From Ruditapes philippinarum (taxonomy: Eukaryota): a DNA stretch of 64,000 nucleotides. Positions 24,501 to 60,089 of this stretch are shown here, piece after piece (positions within the stretch are counted from its first letter, which is position 1; every line of letters starts with the position of its first letter). Location: assembly GCF_026571515.1 (NCBI RefSeq), contig NW_026857505.1, positions 1-64,000 of the forward strand, in the 5' to 3' direction. A program made the translations under genes and the position numbers. The notes under the pieces were generated by a model. The model did not search any database, was not told the origin of the DNA, and saw only the letters and a list, made by a program, of their open reading frames with translations.

Positions 24501-27500
24501 ATTGTTCCATTTTAGATGTAAGGGAACCTGTAAAGAATTTAAGAACAACATGAAAATATAGAAATAAAAAGATAGATAAATGGTTTATTCTTTTCTTTCA
24601 TCTTTTATACAATTACAAATCATTAAAACCAACTCATACCAAGCTGAAGAAAATGTTTGATAGGTGAAATAAGAAATTGACTGTGTACTTTCTGGTAACA
24701 TATACAGAAAAGTTTTCAATATTGATCAAAACTTTATACACAAATAAAACCTGGCACAGCTTTACATATGAAAGCTGGCACAGCTATACAAATGAAATCT
24801 GGCACGACTGTACTCATGAAAGCTGGCACACTACAAATGAAAGCTGGTACAGCTATACAAATGAAAGCTGGCATGGCTGTACACATGAAAGCTGGCACAC
24901 TACAAATGAAAGCTGGTACAGCTATACAAATGAAAGCTGACAAGGCTGTACACATGAAAGCTGGCACACTACAAATGAAAGCTGGTACAGCTTTACAAAT
25001 GAAAGCTGGCACAGTTATATAAATGAAAGATGACCTGGCAGCAGAAAGGGGCATCTGTTTAACTTGCAATTCTTGTTAGTTTGTTGATTTATCTTTGTTG
25101 ATTAAGTTTTTCATGGTAACCATACCATTTCTGTTTGCAGGGAATTCCATTAGAAGTTGTCACTAGAGATATGAGAGAAACTATAGATGAATGTATTGAA
25201 CACATTGACTATGAAAAGATGAATGTTTCTGAGTGTATAGAACAGTTTCAATTTCATCATCACAAGTTATCCTCTTGCAGTTACACTGACATGAGGGAAG
25301 ATGTTAACAACGATAGCATTTTGAATGACAATGAAGAAATTGATCAAAATATAAAAGAAATATGTATCACAGCTTGTAAGGATGATGTTAATTTTGGGAA
25401 TAAAGCTGAGATAGTAGATGAAAATCATTTGGAAATTGCTGTAGAAATTGAATCAAGTCACCACCAACACATACAATATGTGGTTAATGACAATCTCGCA
25501 TGTGATATTGTCAGCAAAATTAAAACTTCTTCTAAGAATGAAGAACCAATTAATGTAAATAAAGATGGTATAGAGTTTATTCATTTAGAGATGAAAAACA
25601 TGGTACAAGATGAAGATTGTGATGACACATCTTGGTTTTTTGATGGCATTGAAGATGATGAGGAGAAAGGCAATGGAAAGGTTGATAGTGTGATTGCTGA
25701 TCCATGTGAAGGTTGTGTAGATCATGGCAAAAAAACAGGTGATACTTACAACAAGAAATATATATCAGATGGTGAGGAGAATTCTGATGACTCAGGGGCA
25801 ATTATAACTGACATCGAGAATTTAAAGAGAGACATAGAAAATGATATTGAAAGATTGACGAAAAGTAAACAGACATTTTTAAAAGAAAAAGTGTGTGTAG
25901 CCGCTTTTAATATGAATGATGATCAGACTGACAATAATGAATTTGATAGTTGTTTTGATGAATCTGATTCTGAGTTTGAAGTTTGCTTTGAAAATAATCA
26001 AGATTCAGGTAATAGAAGAACTAACATGGATGCTAATAAGTATTCTAAAACCACAACTGATTTTGAAGAGGAGAATGAATTTCAAACTGTAGCATTTGAG
26101 TTTACTGACATAAAATTGAAGGAAAATTTGATAAAAGAAGAAAAAGATGATTTGTCTAAAAATTTTGTCTATAGTAAGCCTGAAGAAAATTGTTCAAAAG
26201 TTAATGAAAAGAAAGCATCAACATGTTCTTTTGACATTGAATTACAAACTTGTAGTAAGGAATATAGTAGGATTAAAGAGATATTAGAACAAAGTTGTAT
26301 AAATCATGATATGGTAAGAGAGAAAGAAAAATCAGTTGAACCTCAACTTTCAAGCAGTGGTACAAAGGAGTTTGTGGAATCTAAAGATGTACCACAAAAT
26401 GATGATAAAAAAGTTGTCAGTAAGAGTAGTTTTGAAAAATTGAATAAGTCAGTACTTAATTCTTCCCATTCAAATGATTTTCACCAGAAGAAACAGGACG
26501 AGAATTCATTTCAAAAAGATGAAATGCGGAAGATAAATTCTTTACTTGGTTCACTTGGAAGAGAAAATAAGAAGGATTCTTATAAACTAAATGTTTCTTC
26601 GTTGAAATTTCATAGTAGACATTTCCAGGAAGAAGAAATTGAAGAATTAAACGAAATGGAAAATTATAAGGTAGAGAGAAATACAGGACAGTTAGATAGT
26701 GTTGGAAACAACAAGAATATGGGCTTACCAGGTGGTGGAACCAATTTATCCAGGAATGAAAACACTGTACCAATGAAGCAAAATTATGATTCTAGTTCTG
26801 ATAAGTTGTGTTCTGATCATAAACCAGCATCACTGCCTGATGAAGATATAGTTGCTAATATGAAACAAACTCCAGGAAAATTAGATCTTGAACGTGTTAA
26901 CAGTATGTTAAGAGAAATAAACAATATATCAAAACAAAATAAAACTTGCGATGATCAAAGTATTGAAACAAAAGTTTGTCCGTTTAAAAGTGGAAATGAT
27001 TTAGATATTTCACATTTTTCAAATTCTAGTGCAAGCCATGAATACGAATCAAATGATGACTATCGAACAATGCATAGTATCAAGCCGAAATTGGATGTTT
27101 CAAGTGTAGGAAAGGATTTAGCATTGAAGGAGTGTAAGACAAGGAGTATTAGTAAGCCTAATGTTTTCTTAAGAAGTAGACATATGAATATGGAAAGTGA
27201 GATAAGTGGGACTAGCAATGTTTTAGATACATGTGAAGTTAATCAAAATGAACCAAAGACTAACCGTATGGAAGCAAAACAGATTCCTGACTTTGATAAT
27301 AGTGCTATAGGGCAGTTAATACATAGTCATAGTGAAGAAGCTGAAGAATTGGAAGTAGAAGTGAGAAGCTTGGTTTGTGGTGTGAATCATGATGGAGATG
27401 AAAATATTAACAAAGCTGTATGTGATGTCATTTTGAAGCAGAGCAAGGAAGGGAAACTCAGGTTTTGTTTCTTTCTATTCTAAAGCAAACAATCTAAAGT

Positions 27501-34374: not shown

Positions 34375-36810
34375 CTAATCACTTATATAGAGCATTTCAT
34401 CAAAGCTTGGTAAACGTAACCTTGGCGTGGATTTTGGTTTTGTTTTTGTTACTGAATCAACTTTATTAGCTTCCGTTTCGAAACAGGCTTCTGTATCAGC
34501 CGAGGCATTGCTAATCAAACTTTGTCCATTTTTATTACTAAGTTCTTTTGTATCATTTCTGTAACGTTTTCGCTTTTCAGCAACTGTAGTAAAAAGCAGT
34601 GGTTGACTGTAAATTTCAGTTTCTATATCCTTGTACTGGTATTTAGAATTGTTTTCAGCACTTTCTAAATCGCCGTCGAAATACCGAATTCCAACTTTCT
34701 CTTCTTCACCAGATTGAAACAAACATTTGCCCGACTTATTTAAAGAGCTTTTGTTATTTCTACAGTCCACTTGAAAGTGTGTCGGACCTGAAAATTTTTC
34801 ATGATGAAAAAGGTTTTGTTCACATGTCTCGTTATTAGGTGTTTTTATATCGTGAAAATCTTTTGTAATATTAGAGCTATTAGCGGTGTCGGATAAATGT
34901 TGATAATGAATATCTCCGTTTTCCGTTTTTGTAGCGTTTTTCAATATGCCTTGAAGCTTCTCTCGTCTTGCATTGGAATTAAATTGACTTCTTCGTGGAC
35001 TAGCACTTCTTGCGCGTCTCTTTTTATCATATCCAGTAACCATTCTGCCTCTCTGTTTCAAATTTGACTCATCCATATCATGTCTTGAGATTATGTCTTT
35101 ATCAATTACATCGTCCAAGAATTTAACGTGTTTTGAATCTAGAAGAGGTCTTCCATTACCATTTAATGACGCCTTACTACAAACATTTCTCCTGCCGGAT
35201 ATGAAATCGTCTCCATGCTCAACTTTTCTCAATGATCTTAAAACGGCAAAAGGATCAGTTTCCTTAAACATGTCCATATCTTTTCCCCTATTATTCTCAT
35301 TGGTATCTGTTTTTCCTGCAGGACTACCATTTCTGTCATCCACCTCAATTGTTGATGGTTGTTTTACATCATTTCTTGTATTGCTTCCGATATCAGTTTG
35401 ATCAATATCGCCGTCTATATGGTCGGGTTTGTCATCTTTAAGTTCCTTCACATTGATTCTACCGAACGTATTTAGACTGTCAATTACATCAGCAAGGTGT
35501 GCATTTGCTTCAATAACTATCCGTTTACGGCATATCTTCCTTCTTTCTTCTAGTACATCTTTCTGCTTTGAGGCAATGTTCATTTTATCTGGGAACGATT
35601 GGGCACTGAAATAAATATAGAAAATTAAACATAGACAATTGGTGGAAAGATATTTTTGTATGTAAACTGTACTTGTAAACAGTGTTTTTGACTAGGTTTA
35701 ATATGCAGTACGTCATGTAATTTACAGATGTTTTTATTTGGAATTCTAGTTTTTAATTCATTTATTTTAATTGAATTAATAGAACAGTCTAGCTACACAA
35801 AGAGAATTAATAATGCTAAAATAAAAGAAAATCAACACTTTACAATCACGTTGTTTACGTATGAGCCGCGTCCCGACAAAACCAACATAGTGCGTTTGCG
35901 ACCAGCATCCGCGCAGTCTGATCAGGATTACAAACCCTATAACAAGTAGAGATACTGATAGCGAACAGCATGTATCCTGATCAGAATGCGCGGATGCGCA
36001 GGCTGGTCTGGATCCATGCTGGTCGCAAACCCATTATGTTGGTTTTGTCGTGACGCGGCTCATATTCTTACGATTAATCCACAGGCAGAATAATTAATGT
36101 ATATATTTATGCCGTGATGTACATGTGAATGAAATCATATACCATTTAAATACTTCTTAAAAACATGAAACCTATTCAAATGCTTAAAATGATAACATTT
36201 TGTTTGTTATAACATAATTTTTATATATGTGTAGAATATTTAAAAAAAAAAAAAGAAACCCCGGTGTATTCAGAGTCATTTTTGCGCAAAAGTATCATTT
36301 TAAATTTCAAGTCAATTCATGTATGCATTAAAATTACTAGATAACACTAGCAGGATGTTCAGCATTCTCTCAGTTACGACAGTTGCAGGCAGTGAATGAT
36401 AAAACACAGCCGCCGTTAAATTATAGCAGACAGATGTAACTTTGGTCGACTGTGTGGAAAATAGGGCAATTATCAAATGATAAGTATATTTATATTGTAT
36501 ATCAAATGTAATGATTCTGAACAAAACGGCATTTATACGAAAATTCATACTACCTTTCAGATAAAAATCGCAAATTTGTAAGCACCTCGTCTATAATTTC
36601 CTTTTCAGAAGAGTACACTTTCTGAAGTTCTGCAAGTGTATGTCTCTCTATTTTCTTCAGATGTAAATCTATTTCTATTCTCACCAAGTCTATATCTCTC
36701 TTCACAAGCCCTTCTGAGAATTTCAAAAGACTTAAACATTCCATAGCTTTTTGTTTTGTACATGATACAAGTCTATTTAGTTTGTCCATATTTCCTCTAT
36801 ACCCATCCAT
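34375..36810 (-). CDS. Uncharacterised protein with N-terminal coiled coil (TRIM/B-box-type coiled-coil-like) and disordered C-terminus
   Basis: Exon 36810-36554 (donor AAG|gtagta, phase 2) joins in frame to exon 35605-34375 (acceptor tttatttcag), ~495 aa. A possible upstream exon at ~38155-38072 has donor gtgagt. Confidence 0.7.
35863..36061. mobile_element. Palindromic MITE (Sola2-like), internally deleted
   Basis: Homologous to 33768-34002, with GAG...CTC termini. Confidence 0.8.
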
Positions 36811-38575: not shown

Positions 38576-41002
38576 TTACTTCCATGGTTTAACATACATC
38601 CATGCAGCATCTATGGCTCCTGAGTTATTTGAGAGATCCGTTTCATGTTTCGGAATGTCGGAGTCGTGGTCCTCGGCACTTGCTATGGCCATTGCCGTCG
38701 CTATTGCATCCCCAGTAAATCCCGCGTGAAAGTTCATCACAGCGTCTCCATGCATACCTTGTGAACTACTAGCTGGCGAGACTTGCTCGTAAGTTTCGGG
38801 AATATTTTCAACGACTTTTGTGGGTCTTTCCCTGTTCATAATTTTTATTTGGCATTTTTTGGGTTTTGGGCGTTTGCGTAAACTTTTTGAAATTATATTT
38901 CCGGGTACGTTTTTTTCGGAGTCATGGGCCTTTTCGAAACCCATTTCGGGGACCATTTTTAAATTTTGGGAGATGTCGTATTTGGGGGTATGGAAACGGG
39001 ACATAGATGAGTTTTTCTTAAAAATTTCGCCCAATTTTTCCATTTGCTTACCCCCTTATTTTTGGGATATTGTAAAAGGGGGTTTGAGTCTCCAAAGGGC
39101 TTTCTGAGCAGGGTTTCTCCCAAAAACCCCCACGCCCGCACAGTTTTGAAACGTAAAAGGGTTTTTTGGTTTTTCCCAAATTGAAAAGCCTTGAAAATTT
39201 AAAAATTTTGTTCTGTCACGAATGTTTTTTCCCCCAAAAGTCACAGGTGTGTGGTTTAACTCCAGTGTGTATTATAACGTGACGTTTGTACATATACAAG
39301 GAATTGGGCGGGAACAGTTTGTCACAGTACTCACACTTCTTTGCCTTTTCTGCATTTACAGTGTCCTTTTCATCTCCTTCAACAAAATGATTACTTTGTA
39401 ATTTATGGTTAGCAAGCGAAGCTTTGTTGGCAAACTTCTTACTGCAAACCTCACATTGATGACGCTTGATATTGAGATGGCTGTCCATGTGCTTCTTCAA
39501 ACTTCCAGACTGATTGAAACCCCAACCGCATATTTCGCAACAAAACTGACGAGTATCTCCATGGATTCGTTTATGCTTTGATAACACATCTTTGGTTTTA
39601 AATGCCTTTTTGCATACATCACATTCAAACTTACGTTCATTCGTATGAGAGTTCATGTGGATTTGAAAGTTACCTTTACTGCTGCAGATCTTTCCACAAA
39701 TACTACACATGAAACTTCTCTCGTTATGCATCAGCTGGTGTTGCTTCAACTTTTGCTCCGAGGGGAATTCCTTCACGCACTCTTCATACGTACTCGAGTA
39801 TTTATTAGAATGAGCATTTTCTTTATGTTTTGACAGAAACTCTTCACTCGAAAAAATTTTCTTACAGTGGTCACACGGGAAAGATATTACTGGACCAGTT
39901 GCTCGTTTGGCAGATATTTTCGTGCTCTCCAAATCAGATTTCGTTTTTAAAGCCTTTGCGGCAGGTTTTACATTGAGAAATTGGAAGCCATCCCGATGCT
40001 TTCATAGGTTGGTTTTTCACATGCGAACGCTGGTGCGAACCAACATTTATGTCTAGATTCGCAAATGTGTTCACATAACTGACATTCAATATTTTGCGCC
40101 ATGGCATTAATATAATATGATGTAAAAGTAATCTTTTCTTCATTAAAATGTTGCCCACATTTAGTACATTTGATGTCCGTCTCCTCCTTCATTTGTTTCT
40201 ACATTCACATAGAAATTCACAACAAAATCCATGAAAATGACACTAAAGTTTTCGAAGGTATGGAGTTCTTCCGTGTACAGACTCTGTGTACCTCAAGAAT
40301 AAATCTTTGTCTGGGGAATTCAAGAACTACATAGCTTACATTTAACATTCCCTTCGGGTTCATCGTAATGCTTTTTAATATAACATGATTTTGAACGAAG
40401 GTGCTTATTATGTGCTACTGTTGATGGAAACGGCTCGTTACATCTGGTACAATTATATGTTCTTGTTACAGTCTGTTGTCGAATCGTTGTCTTACTTTTA
40501 CTATCAGCATCTTTCTTGTCTTTATTGTTATCTTCATCACTTTTTAATTCTATCTTTATTGTATCTTTCGGCCGAACTTTTGTCATTTGCCTTTTAACAG
40601 GCGACTTCTGTTCTTTCTTAATAACTCGTTTTACTTCAGCACTGCCTGACTTAACATCCACTTTTATTTGATATTTTTCGTCTTGTTTTGGTTCAAACCT
40701 GGCCTTGTTTACTTTTATTGTACCTTTTAGTGTTTTCACAACAGTTTTCTTTTCTTCTTTCATAACATTTTGGTCGTTTTTCATTGATCTAGTTTTTATA
40801 CCTTTACCCTTACTTCTTTTGCTGTTTGAACTTACCGAGGCTGTGGGAAAAATTGATCCTTCATCTGTTACTGTCTCATTTATCAATGTATTATCAGTTT
40901 CAGAGTCCTCATCAAGCTCTGTAAGATGACCGTCAAAATCGTCGTCATCGTTTGCAATATCATCGCCCTCTTGTCTCTGTGTACCAGCTATGTCAATGAT
41001 AT
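38576..41002 (-). CDS. Multi-C2H2 zinc-finger protein, large terminal exon (frameshifts probably assembly errors)
   Basis: Acceptor ctttttcag|AT at 41002 (phase 1), an acidic/Lys-rich region, then about 12 fingers across ORFs 40320-41105, 39968-40192 and 39216-39932 (CSICGK..HMNSHTNERKFECDVC..HKRIH, HTGVKP). C-terminus ends at 38576. Confidence 0.85.
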
Positions 41003-41049
41003 CTGAAAAAGAAATCATCAGACAACAGTTCGTAAAATGGTGAAATAGT

Positions 41050-44000
41050 ATATCACAACACTTACAAACAAACGGTTTCCAAAAAATGCATTTACCAAGA
41101 ACCATAATCTTTTAACACCAAAAACCCACATTTTTTGATTTGGGGGTCCCATAGAATCAAAAAACTTTTTTATTGTTAAATCAAAACCATGTAGAATTTT
41201 TAACATGTATAAGTGGGTTAATGCACCCTTTCTTTCTTTAATATCTACAGAAGCACGGCTTCAAAATTTAAGATAAAAAGGGCATGACTCTTATATATTG
41301 CTTTCAGGATAATGCCTCTTGTTTTACAATTGCCCTTTGCCATTATCACCAAGGGTTCCAAGTTTTACGTTGATACTTTTCTTAAATTTTGAAAAACAAA
41401 ACCAACTTTTATATTTTTACGTATGCAAAAGGGGCAAAGTTCTGCATTTCTTTTGACCTCTAATTGGGAAATTTAAAAGAATTTTTTAAAATGGCATTTG
41501 GGAATGTTTTAAATTCTTTTTTTTTGTTCCTTTACAATATTTTAACCCTTTTTTAAAACTTTTTAAAATTTTCATGATAATTTTGCTTTTAATCTGGGAC
41601 GCAAAGCTGCTTTAAAGAGTCAAAATTTTCCTTTTCCCTTTTTCAAAAGGGTTTTTAAGGGGAATTAATTTTTTTTTCCCCCCACGAAATGGCCCCTTTT
41701 TATGATGAGCAAATTAATTTTCCCAAAATTTTAAAATTGAGTTATTTGGGCTACATGATGAAAACGAGGGGGAAAGCAAACGATCAATATTTGCGGTCGT
41801 ATGTTAAAAATACGTAACCCATATAAGCTAATGATTTCCTTAAAATTTAGAAAGGTAAATTTAAAGGGAGATGCTTAAACGAAAAAATGTTGGGCCCCGT
41901 AAAAATCTGCCCTGTAGAAATGCCCCCTTAAGTTTTGAAATAGAAAAAGAATTTTCCCAAATTTTTAAAAAAAGAATATCTTTTGATAGGTTTTTTTCGA
42001 GAATTTTAAAACTTTTAAAAAAATGGTTTTAAACCCGCACAGGAAAAAAAATCAAAAAATCAAAAAAGGGGCATTTTTTACAAAAACCCTAAATTTTAAA
42101 AAATTGGTTATGGGATAACAATTTTTATTTAAAAACATTTTGTTATAAACCAAATCCCAAAGCAAATTTTCCTTTGACAGTTTCTGAGAAAACATTTAAA
42201 TTATTTTTTCAGTAACCGATCTTTGACCTGAAAATGAGTTTTGTGACAGGTAGAACTCATCAAGGGGCCTATCGATGTTTCAATGTAATAGTTTGTGAGG
42301 TTTAAAAGTAAATTACTTAACCAAAAAGTTAAACAAAAGCTGATGTCAGAGTAACGACATTGCCGTGTGGGTTGTGTAGCTTTGGTTTTTAACGGGAAAG
42401 TGGAGCTAAAACTGTTTTTTTATATATTTTGAACACATTGTATGCATCAGTAAAACTATAGCAAAATACCACATAAGATATCTTGACAGTAGCTTTACTG
42501 TTTTACTGGAAAAGCGGATTTTTTGTTATTTTCTTTAACCAAATGTATGAAATAGTTAAAACTATAGCTTAAACAATGCTTACTTAAAACATAAAGGGTT
42601 ATATGAAATTATGAGGTTTCTGTAAATTGTTTGCGTACAATTTCTGAAATTTTTTCGGGGACAAGGGGATAAAGTTTAAAAACCTGGGAGATATGTGCAA
42701 GTCTAATAGAATCAGTACTGTTCTCAACAATGTATAATGACCTCTTTATTTTACACACCACCATTTTGCTTGACATTTTGACTGAACTTTGTGACTCTAA
42801 GTACAATAAGGATTTGATACAGATTTTCACAAATATGAAAATGAGGCTAGATAGAGTAAAAAATACATTTTGGACTCTAAAATTTTTGGGAGATACGATA
42901 AAAAACATCTGATATAGATTTTTTTGGACTCTGGAAATGAAAATTGAGACGTATAAATTGATAAGATCAGTTCCAATATTTGATTTCTACTGGAAACATC
43001 ATGTGGTTGCAAAATGCTGAAAGTTTTATTGGTTATATTTCAATAAAGGTGTAAATACTGCAAAAAATATAAATATCACCTATGGGTCTATACAAGAACA
43101 GGAAAAAACAACAAATTTTAAAAAACATACTGGCATGGAGCAGTTCCCCGTTTCAGAAGCAGTTAACCCCCTATTTTTTCTTTAAAGCCTTTTATTTTTT
43201 TCTTGATTCTTTAAAAAATTTATTTTTAAATCAAAACAGATACATTTAAAAGAGACAAAAAACTAAGTTTTCATTCGGCAATACGCATTAAAAAATTTTC
43301 ATTTTAAATCACTTTTCCCCGGGGGCGTCCCCTCAAAACGTGACCTTGTTTTCTCTGGGGGGTTCCGTCCTTGCGCGATGCGCCAAAAAAATTTACACGT
43401 GGGGGCTTGTTAAAAGGGTTTTTTTCCCCTAAAAACCAACTGTTTTTCAGATAAATAGGGAATGTGATTTAAAAAATTGTTTAATTTTTCCCGAAAATTT
43501 TTACCCAAAATTTCTATTTAAAAAAAATTTTATGGTTTTTGGAAAGCGTAAAAAAATCATGTATACAAGCATGCTATTTCATGTGAATGCGTTGGGGGGA
43601 ACGGTACCGGGAATTTGATACCCCGTTTAGTCTACGGTCCCAAACCCTGAAAATTTCATCTATTTATTTTTGAGATAATTGGCTGTTTTAAAAAATTGTA
43701 AATGAAAAAATAGGGGCCGAAATAAAATTTTATAATTCCCAAAGGGTTTTTGATTTTTTTGTACGGGAAAATACTCCTTCCCTTTATACAAAATAATCAA
43801 AAAATTTTGGTACCCCATTTTGAGGCCTCATAAGTAAGGGGTTTTTCTATGGTTTTTGAACATGATGGAATTTCCCTGATTTGGTTTTTGACGGGACCGA
43901 ATATTGTGGGGTAAAAATTCAAAAATTTTTGGGGAGTAGCGTAATAAAAAAAAAGTTTTTAAATTTAAATAAGATTTTTGGTAAAGGGGGAATGGGTTGC

Positions 44001-44460
44001 CCTTCCATTTTACAATTTTTTAATACCTTTTTTTTTCAAAAACCTTTTCTTTTCAAAAAAAATTTCATCAAAAAAAATAAAAAAAACCTTTATATAAAAA
44101 ACACTAATTTATTTTGGTTTGGAAAAAAACCCAAAATAAAAATTAAATTTTTTATAACAGGCTACATGGTTTTATTCACTAGTAAACTTCCCTTTTTCTT
44201 ATTTTTTAATATACCAGTATATGAAACATCAATTTCATTTGAACCCCTTAAAAAGGGAAAAACCCCTGAAAAGGTTTTTTTTACATGAAAGAATGGAAAT
44301 AAATTCCCCCCCAATTTTTTTACTAAATTTTATGTAGGTTTTGGACCAAATTTTTTTTCTGCATTTTTCAGATATTTTTCACCCTTTTGAAATTTAAATT
44401 TTTTTAAAAGGGCCAAAATGGGCAGAAATTTGAAAAGCCCCTTGGCCCAACGTTTTTTCA
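41050..44460. other. Low-quality, homopolymer-enriched consensus region (also 38810-39240)
   Basis: Abrupt excess of A/T/G/C runs. The same signature garbles zinc-finger codons (HTCDFWGKK). Confidence 0.7.
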
Positions 44461-44613
44461 CATTACTCTCGCTTAAAATTGCACAAATATAGATTTTCAA
44501 ATATATGTCTATATAATCCGTTACAGATTTTTTTCCATTTTAATTTTTTCACTTGATCAATGTAAAAATTTCAAATTTATATTTCTAGGCTTTTAGACCA
44601 CAGTAGAGCTCCT

Positions 44614-46120: not shown

Positions 46121-47702
46121 AAACAAGAGGGCCATGATGGCCCTGAGGTCGCTCACCTGTATATAGGCCCCCCAACCCCCACCCCCCCAACGTTGCAGGG
46201 CCAATTTAACCCAAGGGCTTTTAATTTGCACAAACTCGGTAGGACACCCATAAGAAGATGTTTCATGCTAAACATCTAAGCTCTAGCTCATTGGGCTTTA
46301 TTGAAAGAAGATTTTTTTAAAGTTTTTACTATACACATATAGTTAAAAACAATGACACCCCTGGGGCCGGGCCAGTTTTGACCCCAGGGCTTTTATTTGA
46401 ACAAACTTTGTAGACACTTACTAGAAGATGTTTCATGCTTAATATCTAAACTCTAGCTATTTGGGTTTTTTCAAAGAAGATTTTTTAAGTTTTTGCTATA
46501 CACATATAAGGATAATCAATGACCCCCGGGGCGGTGCCAATTTTGACCCCAGGGCTTTTATTTGAACAAACTTGGTAGACACCTATTAGAACATGTTTGA
46601 TGCTAAATATCTTAGCCATAGCTCTTTGAGTTCTTTCAAAGAAGATTTTTTAAGTTTTTACTATATGCATATAGGGAAAATCAATGACCCCCCGGGGCGG
46701 GCCAATTTTGACCCCAGGGCTTTTATTTGAACAAACTTGGTAGACACCCATTAGAACATGTTTTATGCTAAGATATGTTCTTTAAAAGAAGATTTCTTAA
46801 GTTTTTACTATATGCATATAGGGAAAATCAATGACCCCCCGGGGCGGGGCCAATTTTGACCCCAGGGCTTTTATTTGAACAAACTTGGTAGACACATATT
46901 TAGAACATGTTTCATGCTAAAAATCTTAGCTCTAGCTTTTTTGGTTCTTTAAAAGAAGATTTCTTAAGTTTTTACTATATGCATATAGGGAAAATCAATG
47001 ACCCCCCGGGGCGGGGCCAATTTTGACCCCAGGGCTTTTATTTGAACAAACTTGGTAGACACCTATTAGAAGATGTTTCATGCTAAATATCTTAGCTTAA
47101 ACTCTTTTGGTTCTTTAAAAGAAGATTTTTTAAGTTTTTACTATATGCATATAGGGAAAATCAATGACCCCCCTGGGGCGGGGCCAATTTTTGCCCCAGG
47201 GCTTTTATTTGAACAAACTTGGTAGAGACCTATTAGAACATGTTTGATGCTAAATATCTTAGCCATAGCTCTTTGAGTTCTTTAAAAGAAGATTTTTTAA
47301 GTTTTTACTATATGCATATAGGGAAAATCAATGACCCCCCGGGGCGGGGCCAATTTTCACCCCAGGGCTTTTATTTGAACAAACTTGGTAGACACCCATT
47401 AGAACATGTTTCATGCTAAATATCTTAGCTGTAGCTCTTTTGGTTCTTTAAAAGAAGATATTTAAAGTTTTTTTCTTTCGGTTGCCATGGCAACCAGAGT
47501 TCTGCATGGAATTAAATTCTTTGAACAATTTTTAAAGGTGACCACCAAAGGAACATTCCTGTGAAATTTGGATGAAATTAGCTTAGTGGTTTATGAGGAG
47601 ATGTCATTTAAAGTAAAAGTTTACGGACGGACGACGGACGGACGCCGAATGAAAAGCGATCACAAAAGCTCACCCTGTCACTTTGTGACAGGTGAGCTAA
47701 AA
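46121..47702 (-). mobile_element. Helentron-associated non-autonomous element (HINE/pearl-like) with internal ~166-bp tandem array
   Basis: Minus-strand 5' TTTTAGCTCACCTG subTIR plus palindrome, (CCGT)n microsatellite, about 8 tandem units, 3' CAGGTGAGC subTIR, stem-loop AGGGCCATCATGGCCCT and CTTGTTT end. Confidence 0.9.
46190..47475. repeat. Tandem array of ~166-bp monomers (about 8 copies)
   Basis: ccccagggcttttatttgaacaaactt recurs at ~46209, 46382, 46547, 46712, 46860, 47027, 47194 and 47360. One unit has an ~18-bp deletion. Confidence 0.95.
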
Positions 47703-49167: not shown

Positions 49168-50104
49168 ACAAGAGGTTCATGATGACCCTCAACTGCTCAC
49201 CTGATATGAATTTGCATGGACAAGATTTCATTTTAAGGTCAATATCATCAAATCTGCCATGCAGCTGAGGAGGACATGTCATTCTATTCATACATTTAAG
49301 TCTATTTATTTTAACTGCAAGCAGCCATTTTATTCATACATTTAAGTCTACATTTAACTATAAACAGCAATTTTATTAATCAGATTGAAGTACTTTTAGC
49401 AATTTTTGTTTTTGATTTTTCTAATTGACTTTAAAGGAACTCCACTGAGATTCAAAAGCTTAAAACTTAAAATTTGAATTTATTACATAGATCAACTGGG
49501 GCACTTAAAACAGAAAATTCAAGGATGATTAAGAAATATACTCGGAAATAAATAACAAATTATGTTTTGTGTGCTATTCTTAGCCGGATAAGAGTGAAAA
49601 GCACTGCATTGCTTTTCAATTGTGAGTCATTTTTCACAAATATAATAGTTGTCCTGGAAAAACAGAGTGAGCAAATGGTCTGAAATTTTGCACACAAGTT
49701 ATTAGTTTAGACCTTCAACAAATGGAACATTTATCTTCCAGTCCCCTCATGTTAAAAAATCCTGAGTTAAGTCCCTTTAAGCAAAATATGCCTACAAGTA
49801 AGCTTTTTCAAGTTTATTTCAATATATAATATTCAATTATAGCTCTCGTAGCCATCTTGTTGAGCGGAATGACACAATTTTAGCAAGCATTGCAAAGTGC
49901 AAGCCAAGGGTCATTTTTATACAGTTTCAAAATCTAACAAGCTGTTGAGTAGATATTATTCCTATAGAGTTTCATAACAAAAATCTACCACTCTGAGGCA
50001 AAAGATTTAGGAGATTTTGTTTAAAGTAAATGCTACTGCAGGAAAATGATTGGAGGATGCTGGACACAGGGCAATCGCAATACCTCATCTTAAAGTAAGC
50101 TAAA
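49168..50104 (-). mobile_element. Old HINE-like element remnant
   Basis: caagaggttcatgatgaccctcaactgctcacctg matches 46124-46159; the other end gcaatcgcaatacctca..gtaagctaaa matches 47656-47702. Confidence 0.55.
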
Positions 50105-50993
50105 TTCTTTTGTCTATTTGTAAACAAAATGCAATTGATTAAAAATTCATAAAAAAAACAACAACCTCACAATACTTAAAAAAAACAAAGTCAGTAACAA
50201 AATGTAGCTTAAAATTAAATTAAATATATAACCATACTTGTATATGAAAGCTAACTATTTCATACAATCAATCTACAAATATACAAAAGAAAAATAAAAC
50301 TTATCTCAAACAGACAATCTATGAGTGTTAAGCCTACAAGCATCATTCATAACAATCAAATCTACAATCCTTTTATTTTGTGAGAAAAAAAAAAATTCTG
50401 CCTAGTTTCACAACATTTGGCCCTAACCTAGGAACTTATAACAGATGCTCGGTTTTACCCTGGCTTGTGACAATGACATTGAAAAAGAATGGATAACATT
50501 CTATTTTTTGAGAATTGCCTGCAGTATAAATCTATATTATTTCAAGAAAATGATAATTTTATAATAAATGAAAATTTTGTGTTGTTAATTAAGCCAGCAA
50601 GCCTATAAGTACAAGAAAACCTACTGTTTACTATGAATTATATTTTATCAATATTAAAAAAACAGATCTATAAAATTTGCATGTCTTACTTGATGACAAA
50701 TACCATGATTCATATTGCATCAGCTAAGAACAAAAACAACCATCTGCCCAAAATAAGTACATGTACAAACCTTTGATATATAAAAAAACTTTTAAATTGA
50801 ACTTATACAAAACAACTTCCTTTCTCACAACTTTTTATGCTTTAAAATAACAGACAATGCCCATCCTTTGTTGCGATAATTATTAATTAAAACAAAAAAA
50901 AAAAAACACAAAAAAAAAACTTTTGGACTGGTTTTAACAAAGCTACTAGTATATAGAATTAGTCAAAACAAATCAGCAGTAATAAATAAATGG

Positions 50994-53900
50994 TTATGAT
51001 GAGTCTATAGAGCTGTTAGATAGATTGTTTGAAATATGCATATCTTTACTGGATGACCCTGAACCAGGTATTGAATTTTGGTCATCGGATTTCTTTTTCT
51101 CCGGTGGCGTTGGATATCTCCGTGCATACTCCTGAAATATCTTTCTATAAATGTGTTTTGACACAGGTTTTTTGTCTTCGTTTCCGCACATGAATATATA
51201 TTCATCATACCACTTTACTGCATGTATACTCTTTGGTAAAGGACTTTGTACCGAATATTCCGCAAGGTACGAGGCTAAATGTTTATGTACGGTGTCAATT
51301 TGCTCCTCTGATGTTTTGTTCACTGGAGCGTGCTTTCCTCTTCCATCTTGAACAAACAAATCACGAGCCTTCTGCTCAAATGCTTTGTATATGTAACTAT
51401 CACCAATGCCCAGTGTTTTAGAAAAGAACGGCTTACACACAGATTCATATTTACCATTGATCTCAAATGAGAAAAGCCTATGTACATGTCTTCTCTTACT
51501 AGTTTTTGTTGCGACCTGGGTAACGCGTGAAACAACAAACTCTTTCTGAGCTGTGTAAGATCCCAACTTCCAAAACCATTCGAATATTTTCTTTCTTGTT
51601 TCTTCTGAGATTTTCTCAGTACATCTTTGCTTACACTTAGTACAATCAACTTTCCTCATTTTCTTTGCAGGAACTAGTTTACCTTTTGCATTAACATAAG
51701 CCTTTCCCTCTGTCTTTAATTTTTTCTTCACATTTCTCTGCCATGTTTCTGGCCTTCGTTCCCTTTTCCTCTTCAGAGCATCTTTATCTTTGTCAATCTT
51801 TTCCTTAGTTTTTACTTTTTCCTTATTCGGCTTTCCTGAGGAATGTAACACTTCTTGAACTGGGGTACTGTTTAGCATTTCTTTTATAAGATCTGCCTCA
51901 CTTTGTGAGATACCATTGCTTTTGTCATGTGATACCTCAGAGGGTGACACAGTCATGTTAGTTTGCGGAACAGATATCATAGGATTATTCATATTAGCTG
52001 TAGCATCAACACTTTGCATAAAATTCGGTTGCGGGAAATTTTCAGTACCAGGCAGTCCTTGAGTAAATCCACCCTGAAAGAACGAGCCAGTATGAAATGG
52101 TCGGGTATCATACTGGCTAAAATTCCCATGGAGGAATGTATTTGGTTGGTATGATTTGTTTTGGTTTCCACCCTGAGACAATATACCTTGCACAAATGAG
52201 TTATCTTGAGCTGTCCCTCTTTCACTAGCTCCAGTTTGTGCAGGGAAATAACTCCCTCTTTCATGTGAAAAATCTAAAGGGTAATCTCCCTTCTCATTGA
52301 AAACGCCTTTGTTCTGATTGGCTCGACCAATTTCGAGGAATCTTTTTTGTGCACCAAGTAAAGTCCACACATCATGATCTGAAAACAGAAACAATAGATA
52401 GCTCATTTTCTCAATTATCATAAAAGCATTATTACTGTTTAAAAATTTAAAATTAACCTAAAACTGATCCTACATATTATGCTAGAAAAATACAGTGTAA
52501 AATTTACTATGTAGAAATACATTTTTCTGAAATTCTAGTTTAGAAATCATAATAAAAAGGAACAACCTGAGAAGATGAGCCCTATCATTTCTGATTCAGA
52601 AAATTTGAGGGTTGACAGGAAAACTGTTGTAAACCCTCCTTGATTTCATATAAGTTACTACAGTTTTGCCGTCAACCCTTGAAATATAAAAAACTGGCCG
52701 CTTTATTCTTACACAGTTTCCGCTTATATGAGATAAATGATTTAAATACAAGGCAAGATGTGTAATAAATACATAATTATCTAAAGAGGTATCCATAGGA
52801 CAAGTGCACCCCAATATGACTGCTTTGTCAGTTTACTGACTATCAGCAAGATAATAGAACAGCATGATGAACAACAAGGGCAAACCTATATGCCACCAAC
52901 CCTTCCACACACCAGTGAAGGTATAAAAATACTGTTATTTTAAACGAATTACCTCATTTTATTCCTTGAACTTAAGTTTCAATAGAGGGCACAGTGGGTT
53001 GGTTGGGATATGAAATAATCCTTATTTTGTTGACATAATAGTGATACACACATGTGTGCAAGTTAAAAATATAAGAAAACCTGAAAACCATGAATTTAGT
53101 ATCATTTCAACTGGGTTTATAAGGAAAAAAGAGCTTTCAAGAGTAGAAAAAATCTGAACTTCAGGCTAATGCCTGAAACTTGTACCCATTCACACAGCTG
53201 AATTTTACTGAAAAGTAAAGTTTCTATCATGAGATTAAAAAGTTTGCAGAATGAAATATCAAAATTAAATTTCACCATATAACAAGGGCCTTATAGAGAC
53301 CTCACAATTTCAATATTGCCCCTTCACAATCCCATTTGGGCAATCAATATTTCTTTTGACTGCTACCACAAAACAATATTACAACAAAATTTCGAGCTAT
53401 AACCCTCATCTCTTATATATTCCAAGCCATTTACAAGTAAATGAATCCTTTGTCATTTAAACAGTTAATGTTGAAATATCTCACGTGAATGTTCATTTTA
53501 ATTAAATACAGGAAAATTAATATTTGTAATTTTTTTTCACAAATTTAGACATTATCAAACTGCTTCTCTCACAAATTTAAGGAAAATAAAGCTAAAATTT
53601 CACAATTTCGAAAAGATAAATCTTGTTTTTTTTTTACAAATCAAAAAAGCATGGGCCCTTTTAAAAAGTTGAAAACACTTTCTCTACATAACTTTCATGG
53701 TTTGAAGATGTGTATGATCATATAACTCAAAACAAGTCAAAACAATTCAGTATTTCTCAGAAGTGGAAACAGTTTTTTTTTGTTCGTTTTTTTTTGGGAC
53801 TTTTTTGGCTACTATTTTTGATTGGGAATGGGGCCTTATGATCGGGTGAAAATGCCCTGAATTATAAAATTGACCTGCAAAGAGAAGATAAACTGGTCAC

Positions 53901-55303
53901 ACTGTATTGAAGCGAAAATAGCTGTGGCATTTTACTGTTGATATAGTTTTCATTATTGCTTCTGTCATAGACACGGGATAACAAAATCATAAAGTGCAAA
54001 ACTTTTTTATCCTTATCACACCATTATACCCTATTTCTTTGGAAATTTTGCCTCAAGAGCCTAGTCCATGTCTAAGTTATTACCTACAACTTAAGATCAT
54101 TTACCTGTACACATTTTAGCAAATCTGTCCCCAATATCAGAGTTCTCCTTCAGAAACAATTGTCCCTTCTGTGATCCATGAATACTTATTTCACCAAATG
54201 GACCAACAGTTACTAGCATAGACTGAACACCCCTTGAACTGACCTGTTCAAGCTGAAATAAATAATGGACATTTTAAACACCTTTAAGACTTATATATGA
54301 CCACTCTCTTGTCATTTGCTATATTGCTAATCCTGGTAGCCCTATGTAATATTATCATTTGCAGACATCTAATTTAGCACTGGCCTGGTGGCCCATGGCC
54401 TAGTGAGTGTAAATCAGTTCAGGCCAGTGAAATTTTTAAGAAAATGTAGTTAAATACATAGTAGAATAAATTCAAAACTGGAATTCCGGTCTGGAAGTTC
54501 AAAATCTTAAATTCATTGACTGCATTGGGCACTCAACAGTTTAATAATTTGAATTAAGTAATACAAGTTGCCTTTAAAAAGCATTCCCTAATCCCTATAG
54601 GGCTGTATAGCAACATGCATTGTAAACCCTGCATTCATTTCAAAATAATTAAATAGGATTTTATTTAAGTTATAATTTGGAAGGAAGACCCAATTTTAAT
54701 CTCTGACCACTAAGACTGTGTCTTGCCTACAACATAGTCCCATTATAATGAACAATTTGAGTGAATTAGGTAATTACTCAAAGTTTTCTATAAAAACCAT
54801 CATAGAATATCAAAGAATTAAATGGACTAAACACACAAAAATTATCACTTGTTTTTTTTATTAATTACCTTCTACCAAGAACAGGAACAAAGAACATAAA
54901 ACACCAGTGTCACTGTATACTTTAACCCAACTTACTATCGCTAACAATTTGAAATATAGTTGAACGTAAGTTTTGTCTGCTGAAATAAATTCAGATGTTT
55001 TAAATTTGCAGAAACTTAAAATATTTCCAAGTAAAAAGAATAAACCAATTTCATTTGTCAGCCATTGCAATTTGTAGATAAAGATTTATTCAAGATTTTC
55101 CAACCTGACATATCAGAATGACCTACCATTTCTTGAACTTGGTTTATTGTGGTTTGAGTGTCCTCTGTATCCATTGGTTTCCAGTTATGATTGTCCAAGC
55201 TTGACCCTTGACCAGCATTGGCATGCAAGTTGCCAGTAACCTGGTTGTTGGCCATGTTTGATGATAATCTATTTTTGGTAACATCTGATTCCATGTTTTG
55301 CAT
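50994..55303 (-). CDS. Transposase-derived (Sola1-like N-terminal region) putative DNA-binding protein, ~527 aa
   Basis: Exon 55303-55105 (ATG, donor CAG|gttgga, phase 1) joins exon 52378-50994 (acceptor ttctgttttcag). Contains RPETWQRNVKKKLKTEGKAY..GK..CTKCKQRC..RKKIFEWFWKL..VCKPFFSKTLGI..DGRGKH..NK..VHKHL. No catalytic domain, no TIRs, open frame. Confidence 0.75.
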
Positions 55304-57775
55304 GAATCAATATGTTTTATTTAACCCTTAAAAGACAATGTTTACCTGAAAATAAATGATTAATTATTAATTTTTGTAAATAAAGTTTTAAAAATAACAA
55401 AGGTATCTTTTCATTATAAATTTATGTTGAAATTAAAATGGTATATATTTTATCATTAAATGTTTAAAACAATTTTCCTGCATTGCACATAAGTGCCGAC
55501 TTAGCATGATGTTCACACTTATATAATTACCGTTAATTTGCAGCACGCATATATTGTATCAATTAAAAACAACAGCCTGTCTTTACTTATTTATATTAAT
55601 TAACTTTATATGATTAAAAAATCTCTTACAAAGTTTTGAATTTGAAATACCAATGATTTTTTTTTATTTTGCGAACACAAATTTTGTCCGCATAAAGACA
55701 GACAAAAACATTGCCAGAATGAAATACATATATCCTTAACTACATACAGCTGTTGTCAATTTAGTACCGTCATTGTATTTTTAAAGACAAATTCATTTAA
55801 TCCGTTTGTTACTTATATAAGTTTTCCATATTTAGAAAGTCCAAAAATGTGTCATGAAACGTAATAAAATTCATTGGCATTCAATCATAAATTACTTATT
55901 GGCTAATTAATTATTTTTTTTTTGAATATTAAAGTATAAATCCAATTACACATAATGTTTATAAACTTCACCAATGCCCAAAATAATCATCAATCAGTCT
56001 ACACTATATATCTATATCGTCCGCTTTTTTCCTCTTTGTCCGCTTTAGACGTCCGCGTTTTAGACAGGCCCAAAATAACACATGCATTTTCGACTTCCAA
56101 TGGAAGTTCCATATAATTTTGTAAAGTTTCGTACAGCTAGCCAACGCATTGTGTCCTGGCTAGCCGTACGTGACTCATGTACGGCTAAACTTTTGGCTAG
56201 CCTTTGACTAGTCAACAGTTCAGATTTGACAGAGCTCAAGATTTGCATTGTTCATAATAATTTCCGATTATTTTTATGTCAGTAAAACATTCAACGGGAG
56301 TCACAGTTTAACCACATTCTAAAGCTTCCATAAAACCTTTATCACACAGCAATTAAATAGGGATTTCTTTCTTGTCCTGCAGTTTCTATAATTTCTAAAC
56401 AAATTTCTGGGTCAAGCAAACAACGATTAACATGTCAATATCGTTATATCACCTGTGTTCACAGACTTGTCTTATATTATATATGCATATGTAAATGGAG
56501 GCGTAATGTGCTAATTGTTTCCTTACATTAATAATTCTAACTTTGATGACATGTATACGAAGTGATTGCAATAAAAACTTTAATCGTCTCACCACAATTC
56601 AACCGGAACTACTTTAATCAAGGCCATGGGCCACTATTTTTTTTGCAAATACCACAAAGATATTTTTCAAACAACAAGATTCTTCACGGAAACATACATG
56701 TACATATGATCTGATATATATGATATTCTGTAATCATGCAAAGTTTCTGTGCTAGTTTCCTTTTTTATTCTTTTTTTATCGCCTTTGTAAAAATATGCAA
56801 TACATTACTGTACAGCGGTATGCCTAAAATGAGAAAGTGAGATTTTTGACGAAAGTGAGCGAGAGTGACTTTTAAAATTTGAATTGTACCGTTTTAATAG
56901 AATTTTACGGTGAATTTTCTGTTTGTAGACGTATATTATTAGCAAATAATTTTTTTTTTCAAAAATAATCCCTATGATGATTAATCCCGATGATGATTCA
57001 ATCGCCATTAATTTGCACAATTTCTATACACAAGTTCTGAGATCTTCCCTTCGCCCACTTTCAAAAATACGAAAGAGACATGTAAAATATTAAATATAGA
57101 GTTTAAATTGAAATTTATACTAAAATTGCAGTTTACACTACAGTATTGTACATGCAATACTCCTATAAAGGTATCATATAAGGATATTATATATCCCATC
57201 ATTAACGATCGTTCAACACAACGTTATTGTTCTATGTGGTACGTTTTTTACTTTTGTCATTTTTCTAGTTGGGTGGTTCCAATTTTCCTACTTGAATAAC
57301 GTTGAATCACTTGTAATAGAGGTCAGGTTCTATGAGAATCAATGTTTTACACGGAGACAAAATGATCACAAATTTATAACAAGAGTAAATTCTCAACCTT
57401 AGAAGATTTATATAAGTGTTACTATAACCTCTGATCCCCTTTCAAAATTCCATTTTATTTAGTTCCGCCCATTGTTTTCTCGTTTAAGGCACATACATGT
57501 ACATTCTTTCTCTTGGGTACCATACGCCGCTTTTCATGGAATGACACGAGAGTGCCGTATGAACACATCTGCGGATGGGCTGTTTCTAAATTCCAAATTT
57601 CACCATTACCATGATTAAATGTTGGATTCTGTTTAAGCCGGTGCTAGGACGCGTGGACGGTAACTTGTACTTTCCATTACCTCCATGAACAGGCTTAATA
57701 ACATTTTCAATTTTGTCTTGTTTGGCTTTCTTTAGGGATTCTTTATTTCTCTCTATTTTGTAATTTATAACGGCT

Positions 57776-60089
57776 AAAAGGGACTCAATCACTACATATT
57801 TTCATGAAAGGTGCGGTGGCGGGCCAAAATCAAAAGATTTCTGGCCTACCATCAAGCCCTTCCTATCACAAAAACCAACTAATAAAACAGACAATCCAAT
57901 AATACTGAAGAAGTCAGATGGGGAACTATTGTCTGACCAACCCACAGTCGCCAACACACTTAACTCTTTCTATGTCAACATTGCAAAAAACATTGGTATA
58001 GAAGAAAATGAACAAGACACCTTCACACACCCAAGCATAGATAAAATAAATTATAATTGCCCACAATCACAATTTACATTCAAACTGGTCACTGAACAAG
58101 ATATATCTAAGTCCATAAAAAGGTTAAATCCAAAAAAGGCTACTGGAGTTGATCAAATTCCACCAAATGTCATAATTGCAGGCAAACCCTCCCTGACCCG
58201 TCCCATTAGAGATCTATGTAATACTATGTTAAATCAAGGTCAGTTCCCACAAAATCTAAAACTTGCCCAAGTAACCCCAATTTTTAAAAAAGATGACCCC
58301 TATATAGAAAAAAATTATAGGCCAGTAAGTATTCTACCCACCATGTCCAAATTATATGAAAGGGTTATCCACGACCAACTCTCGGGTTACTTTGAGGAAA
58401 TTTTTCATCCCTATCTGGCAGCCTTCCGTAAATCATATGGCTGTCAGACTACCCTACTAAGGCTAGTGGAAGACTGGAAAAAGGCCCTTGATGAAAACAT
58501 GTTCATCGGAGCAATACTAATAGATTTATCAAAGGCCTTCGACTGTCTTCCACATGATTTAATTATCCTTAAACTTAAGGCTTATGGTCTGTCCGATAAC
58601 GCTTGTAACCTTATGAGCAGTTACCTCCAAAAGTGGAAACAAAGGGTTAAACTAGGGGATTATACCAGCCAGTGGGATAATATTATTAAGGGTGTCCCTC
58701 AAGGATCAATATTAGGGCCCCTGGTATTCAACATCTTCAATAATGATATATTTTACTTAATAGAAAAATCCACCCTTTATAATTATGCTGATGATAACAC
58801 TTTGTCCTTCTGGCATAAAAATGCTTCAGTTGTCAAATCTACCCTTGAGGATGAAAGTAATATCCTCATAAATTGGTTTAAATCTAATCAAATGCAGGCA
58901 AACCCTGAAAAGTCCCAAGCTATTTCATTGGGGTCAAGTCACATACTGAAATTAAGTCATTTGATATAAGCGGCAGCACTATCCCATGTGATGAACAGGT
59001 CAAATTACTAGGAGTAGATATTGACTATCAATTAAATTTTGATGCCCAGGTATCAGCCATTTGCCAAAAAGCTGCAAAACAGTTAAATGTCCAGCAAATA
59101 TTAAGTAAATTCCTTTCTGTATCTACCATGCGTATCATATATAAATCTTTTATCAGGTCAAACTTCAATTACGGTCCCATAGTGTGGCACTTCTGTAGTA
59201 AAGCAAATACAGAAAAACTTGAAAAACTCGAGTACAGGGCCTTACGCATTGTTTTCAATGATTTTACATCATCATACGAAAGTCTCCTTAATAAGGTTAA
59301 ACTACCCACACTCCATTTAAGCAGGTTAAAAACAATTGCAATCGAGACTTTCAATTGCTTACATAATATATCACCAAAATATATTCAAAACTTGGCCAAA
59401 TTTAAGACCTCTGTTTACAATTGCAGGTACGATCATACTCTAGAAGTGCCTACAGTTCGAACCACCAGGTATGGACAGAACTCCTTTCGTTTTGAGGCTG
59501 CCCGGGTGTGGAACAGCCTCCCTAGTGACATCAGAAGAGTAGAAAACTTCAAAGAATTTGGGAGGCTGGTTGGCACCTGGACATGCCCAAAATGTAAGTG
59601 TTCAATGTGTCGCTTGTAGCCTGTGTTTGTATGTGATAAACATGTTTTATATGTGCTTCTATGTATAGTCTTTAGATGTTGCAAAGTTATACCTATAAAT
59701 GCTTAATGTTATTTTTTATTTGCATTATGTGATAGTCCTTGTAATTTCCTTGATTTTTATATATATGTTTTTTATATATACTTATTATATTTCTTTTACA
59801 GGTATGTACATAGGTATATATGTATATCTTATTTCTTGTAACTTTTGCAGATTTTAAACTTATTTTAATTTCTTAATTTCATGCTCTTAGATGTGCTTAT
59901 GCTTATAATTTTTAGTTGTTTTAATATTTTAATTCCATGTACTTAAATGTGCTTATGCTTATATTTTTTTATAGCTGCTTTACTTTTGTTTATTTCATAT
60001 ACTATGTTTGTCTGAAAATAGCTCATGAGCTAATGTTTTATGTTTAAATGTATCCGACGTAAAATAAATTTTCTTGTATCTTGTATCTT
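57776..60089 (+). mobile_element. 5'-truncated CR1/L2-group LINE (reverse transcriptase)
   Basis: RT motifs NYRPVSIL, DLSKAFD, GVPQGSILGP, YADD. Frameshift near 58935; C-terminus ends 59619. 3' UTR ends AATAAA plus (TCTTGTA)n. GGCT duplicated at 57772-5 and 60090-3. Confidence 0.95.

Follow-up and report, generated by a model that had tools for sequence, protein, structure and literature searches.

In-frame splicing of a transposase exon to host exons is described for tetrapod genes such as KRABINER at the ZNF112 locus, SETMAR and PGBD3-CSB, and according to the main text of that study the DNA-binding part of the transposase is favoured over the catalytic part and old fusions have usually lost the parental transcript (10.1101/2020.05.07.082677). 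Fusions of the KRABINER type lie inside a zinc-finger gene, keep the host isoform and are under purifying selection (10.1101/2020.05.07.082677, main text). As given in part of a second report, TMPO/LAP2alpha and ZNF451 of mammals carry an alternative exon derived from ORF1 of a DIRS1-like retrotransposon, which stands beside an untouched host isoform and is under strong purifying selection (PMC4495291). As for Sola1 elements, sections of the respective papers give an AWWT target as their hallmark (PMC3845634), report their occurrence in bivalves (PMC10294476) and place no Sola family in Pfam (PMC5751038).

We analyzed a stretch of 64,000 nucleotides from the clam Ruditapes philippinarum (the window), which contains a gene whose terminal exon derives from a Sola1-type transposase, of which it retains the pre-catalytic half. 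Like the tetrapod fusions, this gene joins a transposase exon in-frame to host exons and favours the putative DNA-binding part over the catalytic part; as in fusions of the KRABINER type, the exon lies inside a zinc-finger gene, the host isoform is apparently kept and purifying selection is observed; and as in TMPO/LAP2alpha and ZNF451, an element-derived alternative exon stands beside an apparently untouched host isoform. However, the host parts of the tetrapod fusions are KRAB, SET and SCAN, whereas that of the clam, a mollusc, is a predicted dimerisation module; the donor was half of a cut-and-paste transposase and not the ORF1 of a DIRS1-like retrotransposon; and, unlike in old tetrapod fusions, both isoforms apparently persist despite saturated synonymous sites. 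With Sola1 elements, which have short inverted repeats and ATAT flanks, the exon shares protein homology, but it has no inverted repeats, target duplication or catalytic core, and it is single-copy and conserved in place.

We consider it probable that this exon is a conserved, single-copy Sola1-type half fused to host exons, and the likely DNA-binding end of a transcription regulator, whose predicted N-terminal dimerisation module is probably shared with a zinc-finger isoform through alternative splicing. The words Sola, mollusc and invertebrate are absent from the main text, as distinct from the supplementary tables, of 10.1101/2020.05.07.082677, and a literature search covering largely the main texts of openly accessible papers returned no report of a domesticated Sola transposase, of a molluscan case or of this locus. 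The clam gene differs from the known fusions in the superfamily of its donor, in lineage and in host module, and in that both isoforms have apparently survived for long. Transposase capture has been documented mainly in vertebrates, and this gene provides a clean and old case in commercially important molluscs, in which it flags an unannotated, lineage-wide candidate regulator.

Exon structure, copy number and constraint

The features of the gene are summarized in Table 1. A reading made from the sequence alone had proposed an uninterrupted frame of 461 codons with a good splice acceptor, a Q/G/F/S-rich N-terminal part and a series of motifs including CxxCxxxC. The frame runs from 52378 to 50994 on the minus strand, the count of 461 residues including the codon that is split by the intron; its acceptor is an AG with a pyrimidine-rich tract, and every one of the listed motifs is present in the order claimed. 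Residues 55–125 are composed of G (14%), Q (14%), F (13%), N (10%) and S (8%), in agreement with the proposed N-terminal part, and lysine makes up 30% of residues 180–245. The same reading noted an early stop, which does leave the protein without a catalytic core; the stop does not directly follow the GRGKH motif, the homology continuing for about 80 residues further. No Pfam family matched the exon or the full protein, and no phage match was found. A possible origin of the first 45 residues by duplication of E2 found no support (0/6 comparisons above shuffles).

Table 1. Coordinates in the window of the exons of the clam gene and of the segments of its transposase-derived exon
Feature	Coordinates	Strand	Details
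Host exon E1, first coding	55127..55345	(-)	ATG 55303, next in-frame ATG 55294; phase-0 donor; AG/GT ends
Host exon E2, 148 nt	54105..54252	(-)	Phase-1 donor, fits both downstream exons; beta-hairpin and helix 2 of module
Transposase-derived terminal exon	50994..52378	(-)	461 residues and stop; acceptor 52378, stop end 50994
Residues 1-50, non-repetitive conserved start	52230..52378	(-)	60-92% identity in 12/14 orthologues; the remaining 2/14 stop short of the segment
Residues 51-160, Q/G/F/N/S-rich low-complexity	51900..52229	(-)	Composition; 45-85% identity among orthologues
Captured-domain core, residues 205-360	51300..51767	(-)	Basic helix, C246/C249/C253/C315, GRGKH motif; 88-99% identity, 14/14 orthologues
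Predicted three-helix HTH-like subdomain, residues 361-429	51093..51299	(-)	57-87% identity among orthologues over 361-427
Probable 3' UTR of transposase-derived isoform	49755..50993	(-)	Run X1 contigs 49755-50528 and 50926-51260; 3' end approximate
Alternative terminal exon, C2H2 zinc-finger array	38576..41002	(-)	Acceptor 41002, same phase; Pfam zf-C2H2; frameshifted in assembly

The exon is not free-standing, as had been assumed, but is the third coding exon of a gene in which two upstream exons (E1 and E2, with GT-AG introns) complete a product of 569 amino acids, and this product is letter-for-letter identical to P0026, a R. philippinarum RefSeq protein. The exon recognized by the sequence-only reading was real, while the two host exons and a same-phase C2H2 exon had been missed. 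A contig of run X1 spans exactly 55127–55345, that is E1, at the 3' end of which helix 1 of the shared module is encoded, and E2 has a single match in the genome. Polyadenylation-type hexamers lie 3' of the exon stop, at 50377 and 49818. E2 was also found upstream of the transposase-derived exon at three metagenome loci from two other animals (L049, L050 and L051), with the same phase-1 junction and, at two of the three, an E1-like exon. The three-exon layout and its phase are the same in these two animals, so that a check by synteny, as had been suggested, holds for the order and phase of the gene's own exons, to which the comparison extends, rather than for neighbouring genes.

No transposon-type inverted repeats bracket the exon, only short or A/T-rich pairs being present among the 25 longest of 221, and no 4-bp AWWT target duplication was found around it, as had been stated from the sequence; by contrast, the inverted repeats of related elements are matches of 26–42 bp at 95–100% identity. 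In a DNA search of the genome, which sets a lower bound, the exon had one match, namely itself, which agrees with a single copy, and residues 1–197 likewise had one protein match and no other. The protein search for the exon returned 17 matches, 14 at 63–89% identity and three at 30–33%. The 14 orthologues include Mercenaria (Venerida) as well as Mya and Dreissena (Myida), both orders belonging to Neoheterodontei, and all 14 end shortly past the helix bundle without a catalytic core. Because 7992 candidates were scored, this taxonomic range is a minimum; no named oyster, mussel or scallop orthologue was among them. The split between Venerida and Myida dates back hundreds of millions of years.

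The identity of the orthologues is only 12–79% in the tail, compared with the values for the core given in Table 1. Comparison of the core with the window sequence yielded pS values of 0.73–0.80 and pN values of 0.064–0.082, with synonymous sites saturated, and the one pair with a computable dS gave a dN/dS of 0.033; moreover, two close loci differ at 10 synonymous sites and one non-synonymous site. The proposed dN/dS test thus indicates purifying selection (about 0.03). The single copy, the orthologues, the exon structure and the purifying selection bear out the domestication that had been suspected: the exon is of transposase origin, was truncated and fused to a host gene, and is maintained in single copy under constraint. 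Many broken relatives of the captured domain occur in the genome, as would be expected if the exon were a decaying transposon fragment that is open by chance and was drawn into a gene model. However, this explanation is scarcely credible and already contradicted, given that orthologues occur in two orders, that amino-acid changes are few while synonymous sites are saturated, that the intron phase is conserved and that the exon is single-copy.

Elsewhere in the window, LINE-type reverse transcriptase frames (RVT_1, E 1.2e-28) occupy 57764–59619 (+), upstream of the gene, a tandem array with a unit of 165–167 bp (46198–47472) lies within the intron that separates the terminal exons, and an exon of glycosyltransferase family 11 was detected at 9086–9820 (+) (E 1e-35). 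Two long open frames without a Pfam family, 25120–27483 (+, 787 codons) and 34375–35691 (-, 438 codons), are probably large exons of neighbouring genes.

The zinc-finger exon and the shared N-terminal module

The C2H2 exon, whose array comprises 11 fingers in the Mercenaria orthologue, lies about 10 kb downstream of the transposase-derived exon. Its frameshifts in the assembly (window 38800–44500) are single extra bases that are missing from the reads as well as from contigs of three runs, and the segment is homopolymer-rich and resembles a poor long-read consensus; they are probably sequencing errors. RefSeq models for the gene exist in four species. In Mercenaria, isoforms X1 (zinc finger, P0020) and X2 (transposase-derived exon, P0003) are identical over their first 106 residues, and in a Mactra record the module sits on a zinc-finger protein. 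Among six candidates, a zinc-finger isoform with the module was found in two Venerida only, in a search that did not recover the proteins known from Mya and Dreissena either.

Transcript evidence was taken from run X1, which is RNA by guess. Its contigs of both terminal exons begin at an equal offset, with three fitting and seven loose letters beyond the acceptor, as expected if E2 precedes both terminal exons. An X1 contig lies on 51271–52381, with zero contig depth in three intron bins, whereas an X4 contig extends by 26 bases into the intron between E2 and the zinc-finger exon. Raw RNA reads were few over the exon and no denser there than over introns (X21, 0–1.6; X23, 0–0.1; X24, 0–0.6 per strand).

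These results suggest that alternative last exons likely join one start to either the transposase-derived or the C2H2 exon, and they support the junction between E2 and the zinc-finger exon in R. philippinarum indirectly. It could be argued that the fusion is real but that the zinc-finger exon is part of another gene or is linked to E2 by annotation only, in which case there would be no switch on a shared module; indeed, support for this junction in R. philippinarum is indirect, and no isoform label is attached to the records from Mya and Dreissena. Such an arrangement is nevertheless very improbable, considering that the two terminal exons have same-phase acceptors and that no other long phase-1 candidate lies between 36000 and 54100, that E2 has no second match in the genome, that the module precedes the fingers in the Mercenaria and Mactra records and that the X1 contigs share their offset.

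In Drosophila, mod(mdg4), lola and fruitless combine one N-terminal BTB pairing domain with alternative C-terminal DNA-binding exons. The clam gene differs from them in that its module is small and unrelated to BTB, and in that only two terminal exons were found; it offers a case in which an exchange of DNA-binding domains on a single pairing module by exon choice can be tested. The module, encoded at the E1/E2 junction, is 52–94% identical among seven sequences, and its predicted fold is a helix, a beta-hairpin and a helix (pLDDT 71.7); its resemblance to MADS boxes was noticed ahead of this prediction. Its homodimer prediction scored 0.91, compared with 0.03 for the best of three controls, with 100% contact agreement between runs and pLDDT values of at least 93. 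The mark applied was reached by 21/30 solved pairs and 0/23 single chains from microbes and by 17/29 pairs and 0/30 single chains from eukaryotes, although by only 1/7 eukaryotic pairs without an older solved relative, and the module may have passed because the predictor had learned MADS-box dimers from solved structures.

In the predicted interface, helix 1 and helix 2 each pair with their counterparts in the other chain, and strand 1 does so in antiparallel orientation. MADS dimers have a three-layer layout. The MADS core of SRF, MCM1 and MEF2 and the clam module share the same predicted helix-hairpin-helix order, the antiparallel pairs of helix 1 and strand 1 and the helix 2 layer, and Foldseek ranks 1–10 for the module are all SRF, MCM1 and MEF2 chains. 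However, these matches are not significant (E 0.34–1.3), no match to Pfam SRF-TF was found, and helix 1 is devoid of the basic residues that contact DNA, which makes DNA binding by the module itself improbable. By VIA, the comparison with SEPALLATA3 gave a Z of 2.6 at rank 21, and hhalign of the module against MADS gave a probability of 0.2% with the register as expected. When compared with MADS rows from the genome, the module scored above shuffles with an SRF-like exon (3/500), but not with the other three of the four. A profile search of 1.84 billion representatives returned four real relatives, all of them apparent orthologue pieces; three further matches were repeat-rich and were rejected as chance. 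PDB sequence searches with both alignments yielded nothing below E 0.6, and the ESM Atlas gave no usable feature match for the module. We do not assign the module to the MADS family, for want of a profile match and of the basic N-terminal half, and the structure predictions point to a dimerisation unit that would work like a MADS core while standing outside the family.

Rows 7 and 8 of the ESM Atlas result are mollusc C2H2 clusters (isoforms X14 and X18) with a TM of 0.39 to the module, below the bar, which hints at a wider family of multi-isoform loci. Besides MEF2-like and SRF-like exons, the genome contains two near-identical, divergent MADS-box-like frames (L041 and L043), one of them with a stop.

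Sola1-type relatives and the captured domain

Residues ~205–428 of the exon are homologous to the pre-catalytic half of Sola1-type transposases, and the homology ends at about residue 428, immediately ahead of the CxxC found upstream of the catalytic core. Three acidic motifs of the relative P0017 (503, 581 and 627), which we take to be the catalytic triad, are missing from P0026; the claim that the catalytic core had been lost is supported. In the genome, at least 146 sequences match the captured C-terminal domain; one is the domain itself, and the remaining 145 are 26–44% identical to it. This number is a lower bound in that 150 of 295 candidates were scored. The long frames of several relatives run on into the CxxC motif and three acidic motifs. 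An inverted-repeat pair, enclosing 3.0–7.3 kb, was present in 8 of the 14 stretches fetched around relatives. Five of these eight have ATAT on both sides and start with CG, and the flanks of others are ATAT/TTAT (L028), TTAT/TTAT (L023) or without duplication (L035); ATAT is palindromic, and the flanks represent putative target duplications.

The nearest relative in the genome, L003/L037 (G000:C6581, ~79990–84300), is an internally deleted element of 4.3 kb with perfect inverted repeats, ATAT flanks and a CG start. It is sister to the host clade (support 96/92), and the host rows form one clade, starred in the tree, with support 99/98. A DUF7869 match was obtained from Pfam for the ORFs of 3/7 genomic relatives, and in the ESM Atlas the captured domain led to arthropod clusters without a name, in one of which 80% of the members carry DUF7869. 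The sequence-only reading had recognized the N-terminal half of a Sola1 transposase, of which the transposase origin and the pre-catalytic half stand as proposed; the Sola1-type label of the donor is well-grounded because the relatives have inverted repeats and AWWT-type flanks, and it is not a direct protein match.

We compared the captured domain with 12 transposases at their conserved columns. A total of 33/59 such columns are kept in at least 9/10 host rows, comprising 25/30 up to H367 (the four cysteines and the GRG motif included) and 8/29 beyond it, whereas the SHYCR motif is among the 26/59 columns not kept at that level. The four cysteines are present in 12/12 transposases and 10/10 host rows, and C246, C249, C253 and C315 may form a zinc site. 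In the host rows, the last helix is also changed at several conserved positions; given these changes and that of SHYCR, the ancestral binding mode may be altered.

A confident AlphaFold model of the captured domain (pLDDT 86.6, pTM 0.57) shows a basic helix, a mixed alpha/beta subdomain in which the cysteines lie, and a bundle of three helices. The best structural match of the bundle was Tn7 TnsB (Z 7.4, rmsd 9.6, 120 aligned residues), followed by RFX5 (Z 6.5, rmsd 4.4, 68 aligned) and a second TnsB (Z 6.1, rmsd 6.2, 76 aligned), with P-element transposase and CENP-B ranking lower, all at Z values within the range reached by common helical arrangements. Foldseek with the captured domain returned nothing at E <= 0.001, and no fold match was found for the four-cysteine subdomain, which was searched within the whole domain. 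The matches, which include DNA-binding domains of transposases and of RFX, fit a helix-turn-helix without proving it; the captured half may bind DNA. Pfam contains no family for the Sola proteins, and the searches made matched them to no solved structure; this soluble-looking, stable domain of 230 residues offers a route to how Sola1 proteins bind DNA.

In the explanation that we favour, an element would have inserted in the last intron of a C2H2 gene before the Venerida/Myida split would have been spliced in via a phase-1 acceptor, and would have lost its inverted repeats together with the whole part that begins at the pre-catalytic CxxC. The helix-hairpin-helix module would pair two chains, substituting for the pairing once given by the lost core; the parts reading DNA would be the basic helix, the subdomain with the four cysteines and the bundle of three helices; and the Q/G/F-rich segment (residues 51–160), a candidate activation or condensate region, may recruit cofactors. 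Exon choice would then yield transposase-end homodimers, zinc-finger homodimers or mixed dimers. More tentatively, the gene could be a two-way transcription-factor switch of heterodont clams, built from a transposon, in which a non-DNA-binding, MADS-derived module is joined to a C2H2 array or a Sola1 half in three dimer types, the captured half having become the more conserved and possibly an essential arm. If this were true, it would represent the first domesticated Sola transposase and a reagent for Sola DNA recognition.

The altered SHYCR motif and last-helix positions, the unspecific fold matches and the predicted pairing of the shared module would also suit a captured domain that acts as a protein-interaction or chromatin tether without specific DNA binding, its isoform titrating the zinc-finger isoform via the module. 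However, the basic residues, the four cysteines and GRGKH are kept, and the core is 88–99% identical while the zinc-finger proteins are merely 45–59% identical to each other, a constraint exceeding the needs of a decoy, which makes such a role improbable.

The sequence-only reading had also offered a repressor of related elements. As a dedicated brake on Sola1 elements, the protein would act on their termini or poison transposase complexes and would have no host target genes. Related elements occur in large numbers and include young ones, with copies 96–99% alike, and KRAB-transposase fusions repress via cognate inverted repeats according to the main text of 10.1101/2020.05.07.082677. However, the living genomic transposases are only 27–44% identical to the captured domain, and the termini of four relative families agree at only 10–14 of 26 positions, so that one frozen domain is unlikely to read all of them; the near-invariance of the domain would suit a fixed host target more than an arms race. 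Together with the far stronger conservation of the core than of the zinc-finger proteins, this divergence favours a host target over the policing of elements, and a brake appears unlikely, being the less likely of the options first offered.

Among the relatives, three loci with Sola1-type frames have peptidase or OTU-like sequences (L005:1063-3087 (-), L006:2-3052 (-) and L007:706-1326 (+)). An N-terminal cysteine peptidase of the herpes tegument type (PF04843) is in-frame with Sola1-type transposases, with matches above the cut-off (E 1.6e-7 and 2e-13), and an OTU-like frame lies beside the domain in another, with a match below it (E 5.5e-4). Peptidase cargo may be undescribed for the Sola1 superfamily. 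A further protein, P0016 from Logan (352 aa), consists of a Sola1-type N-terminal half that stops near the same point as the clam exon and a Q/M-rich tail. Its grouping with the clam genes was rejected (p-AU 0.017), and it groups with a firefly transposase, possibly representing an independent domestication.
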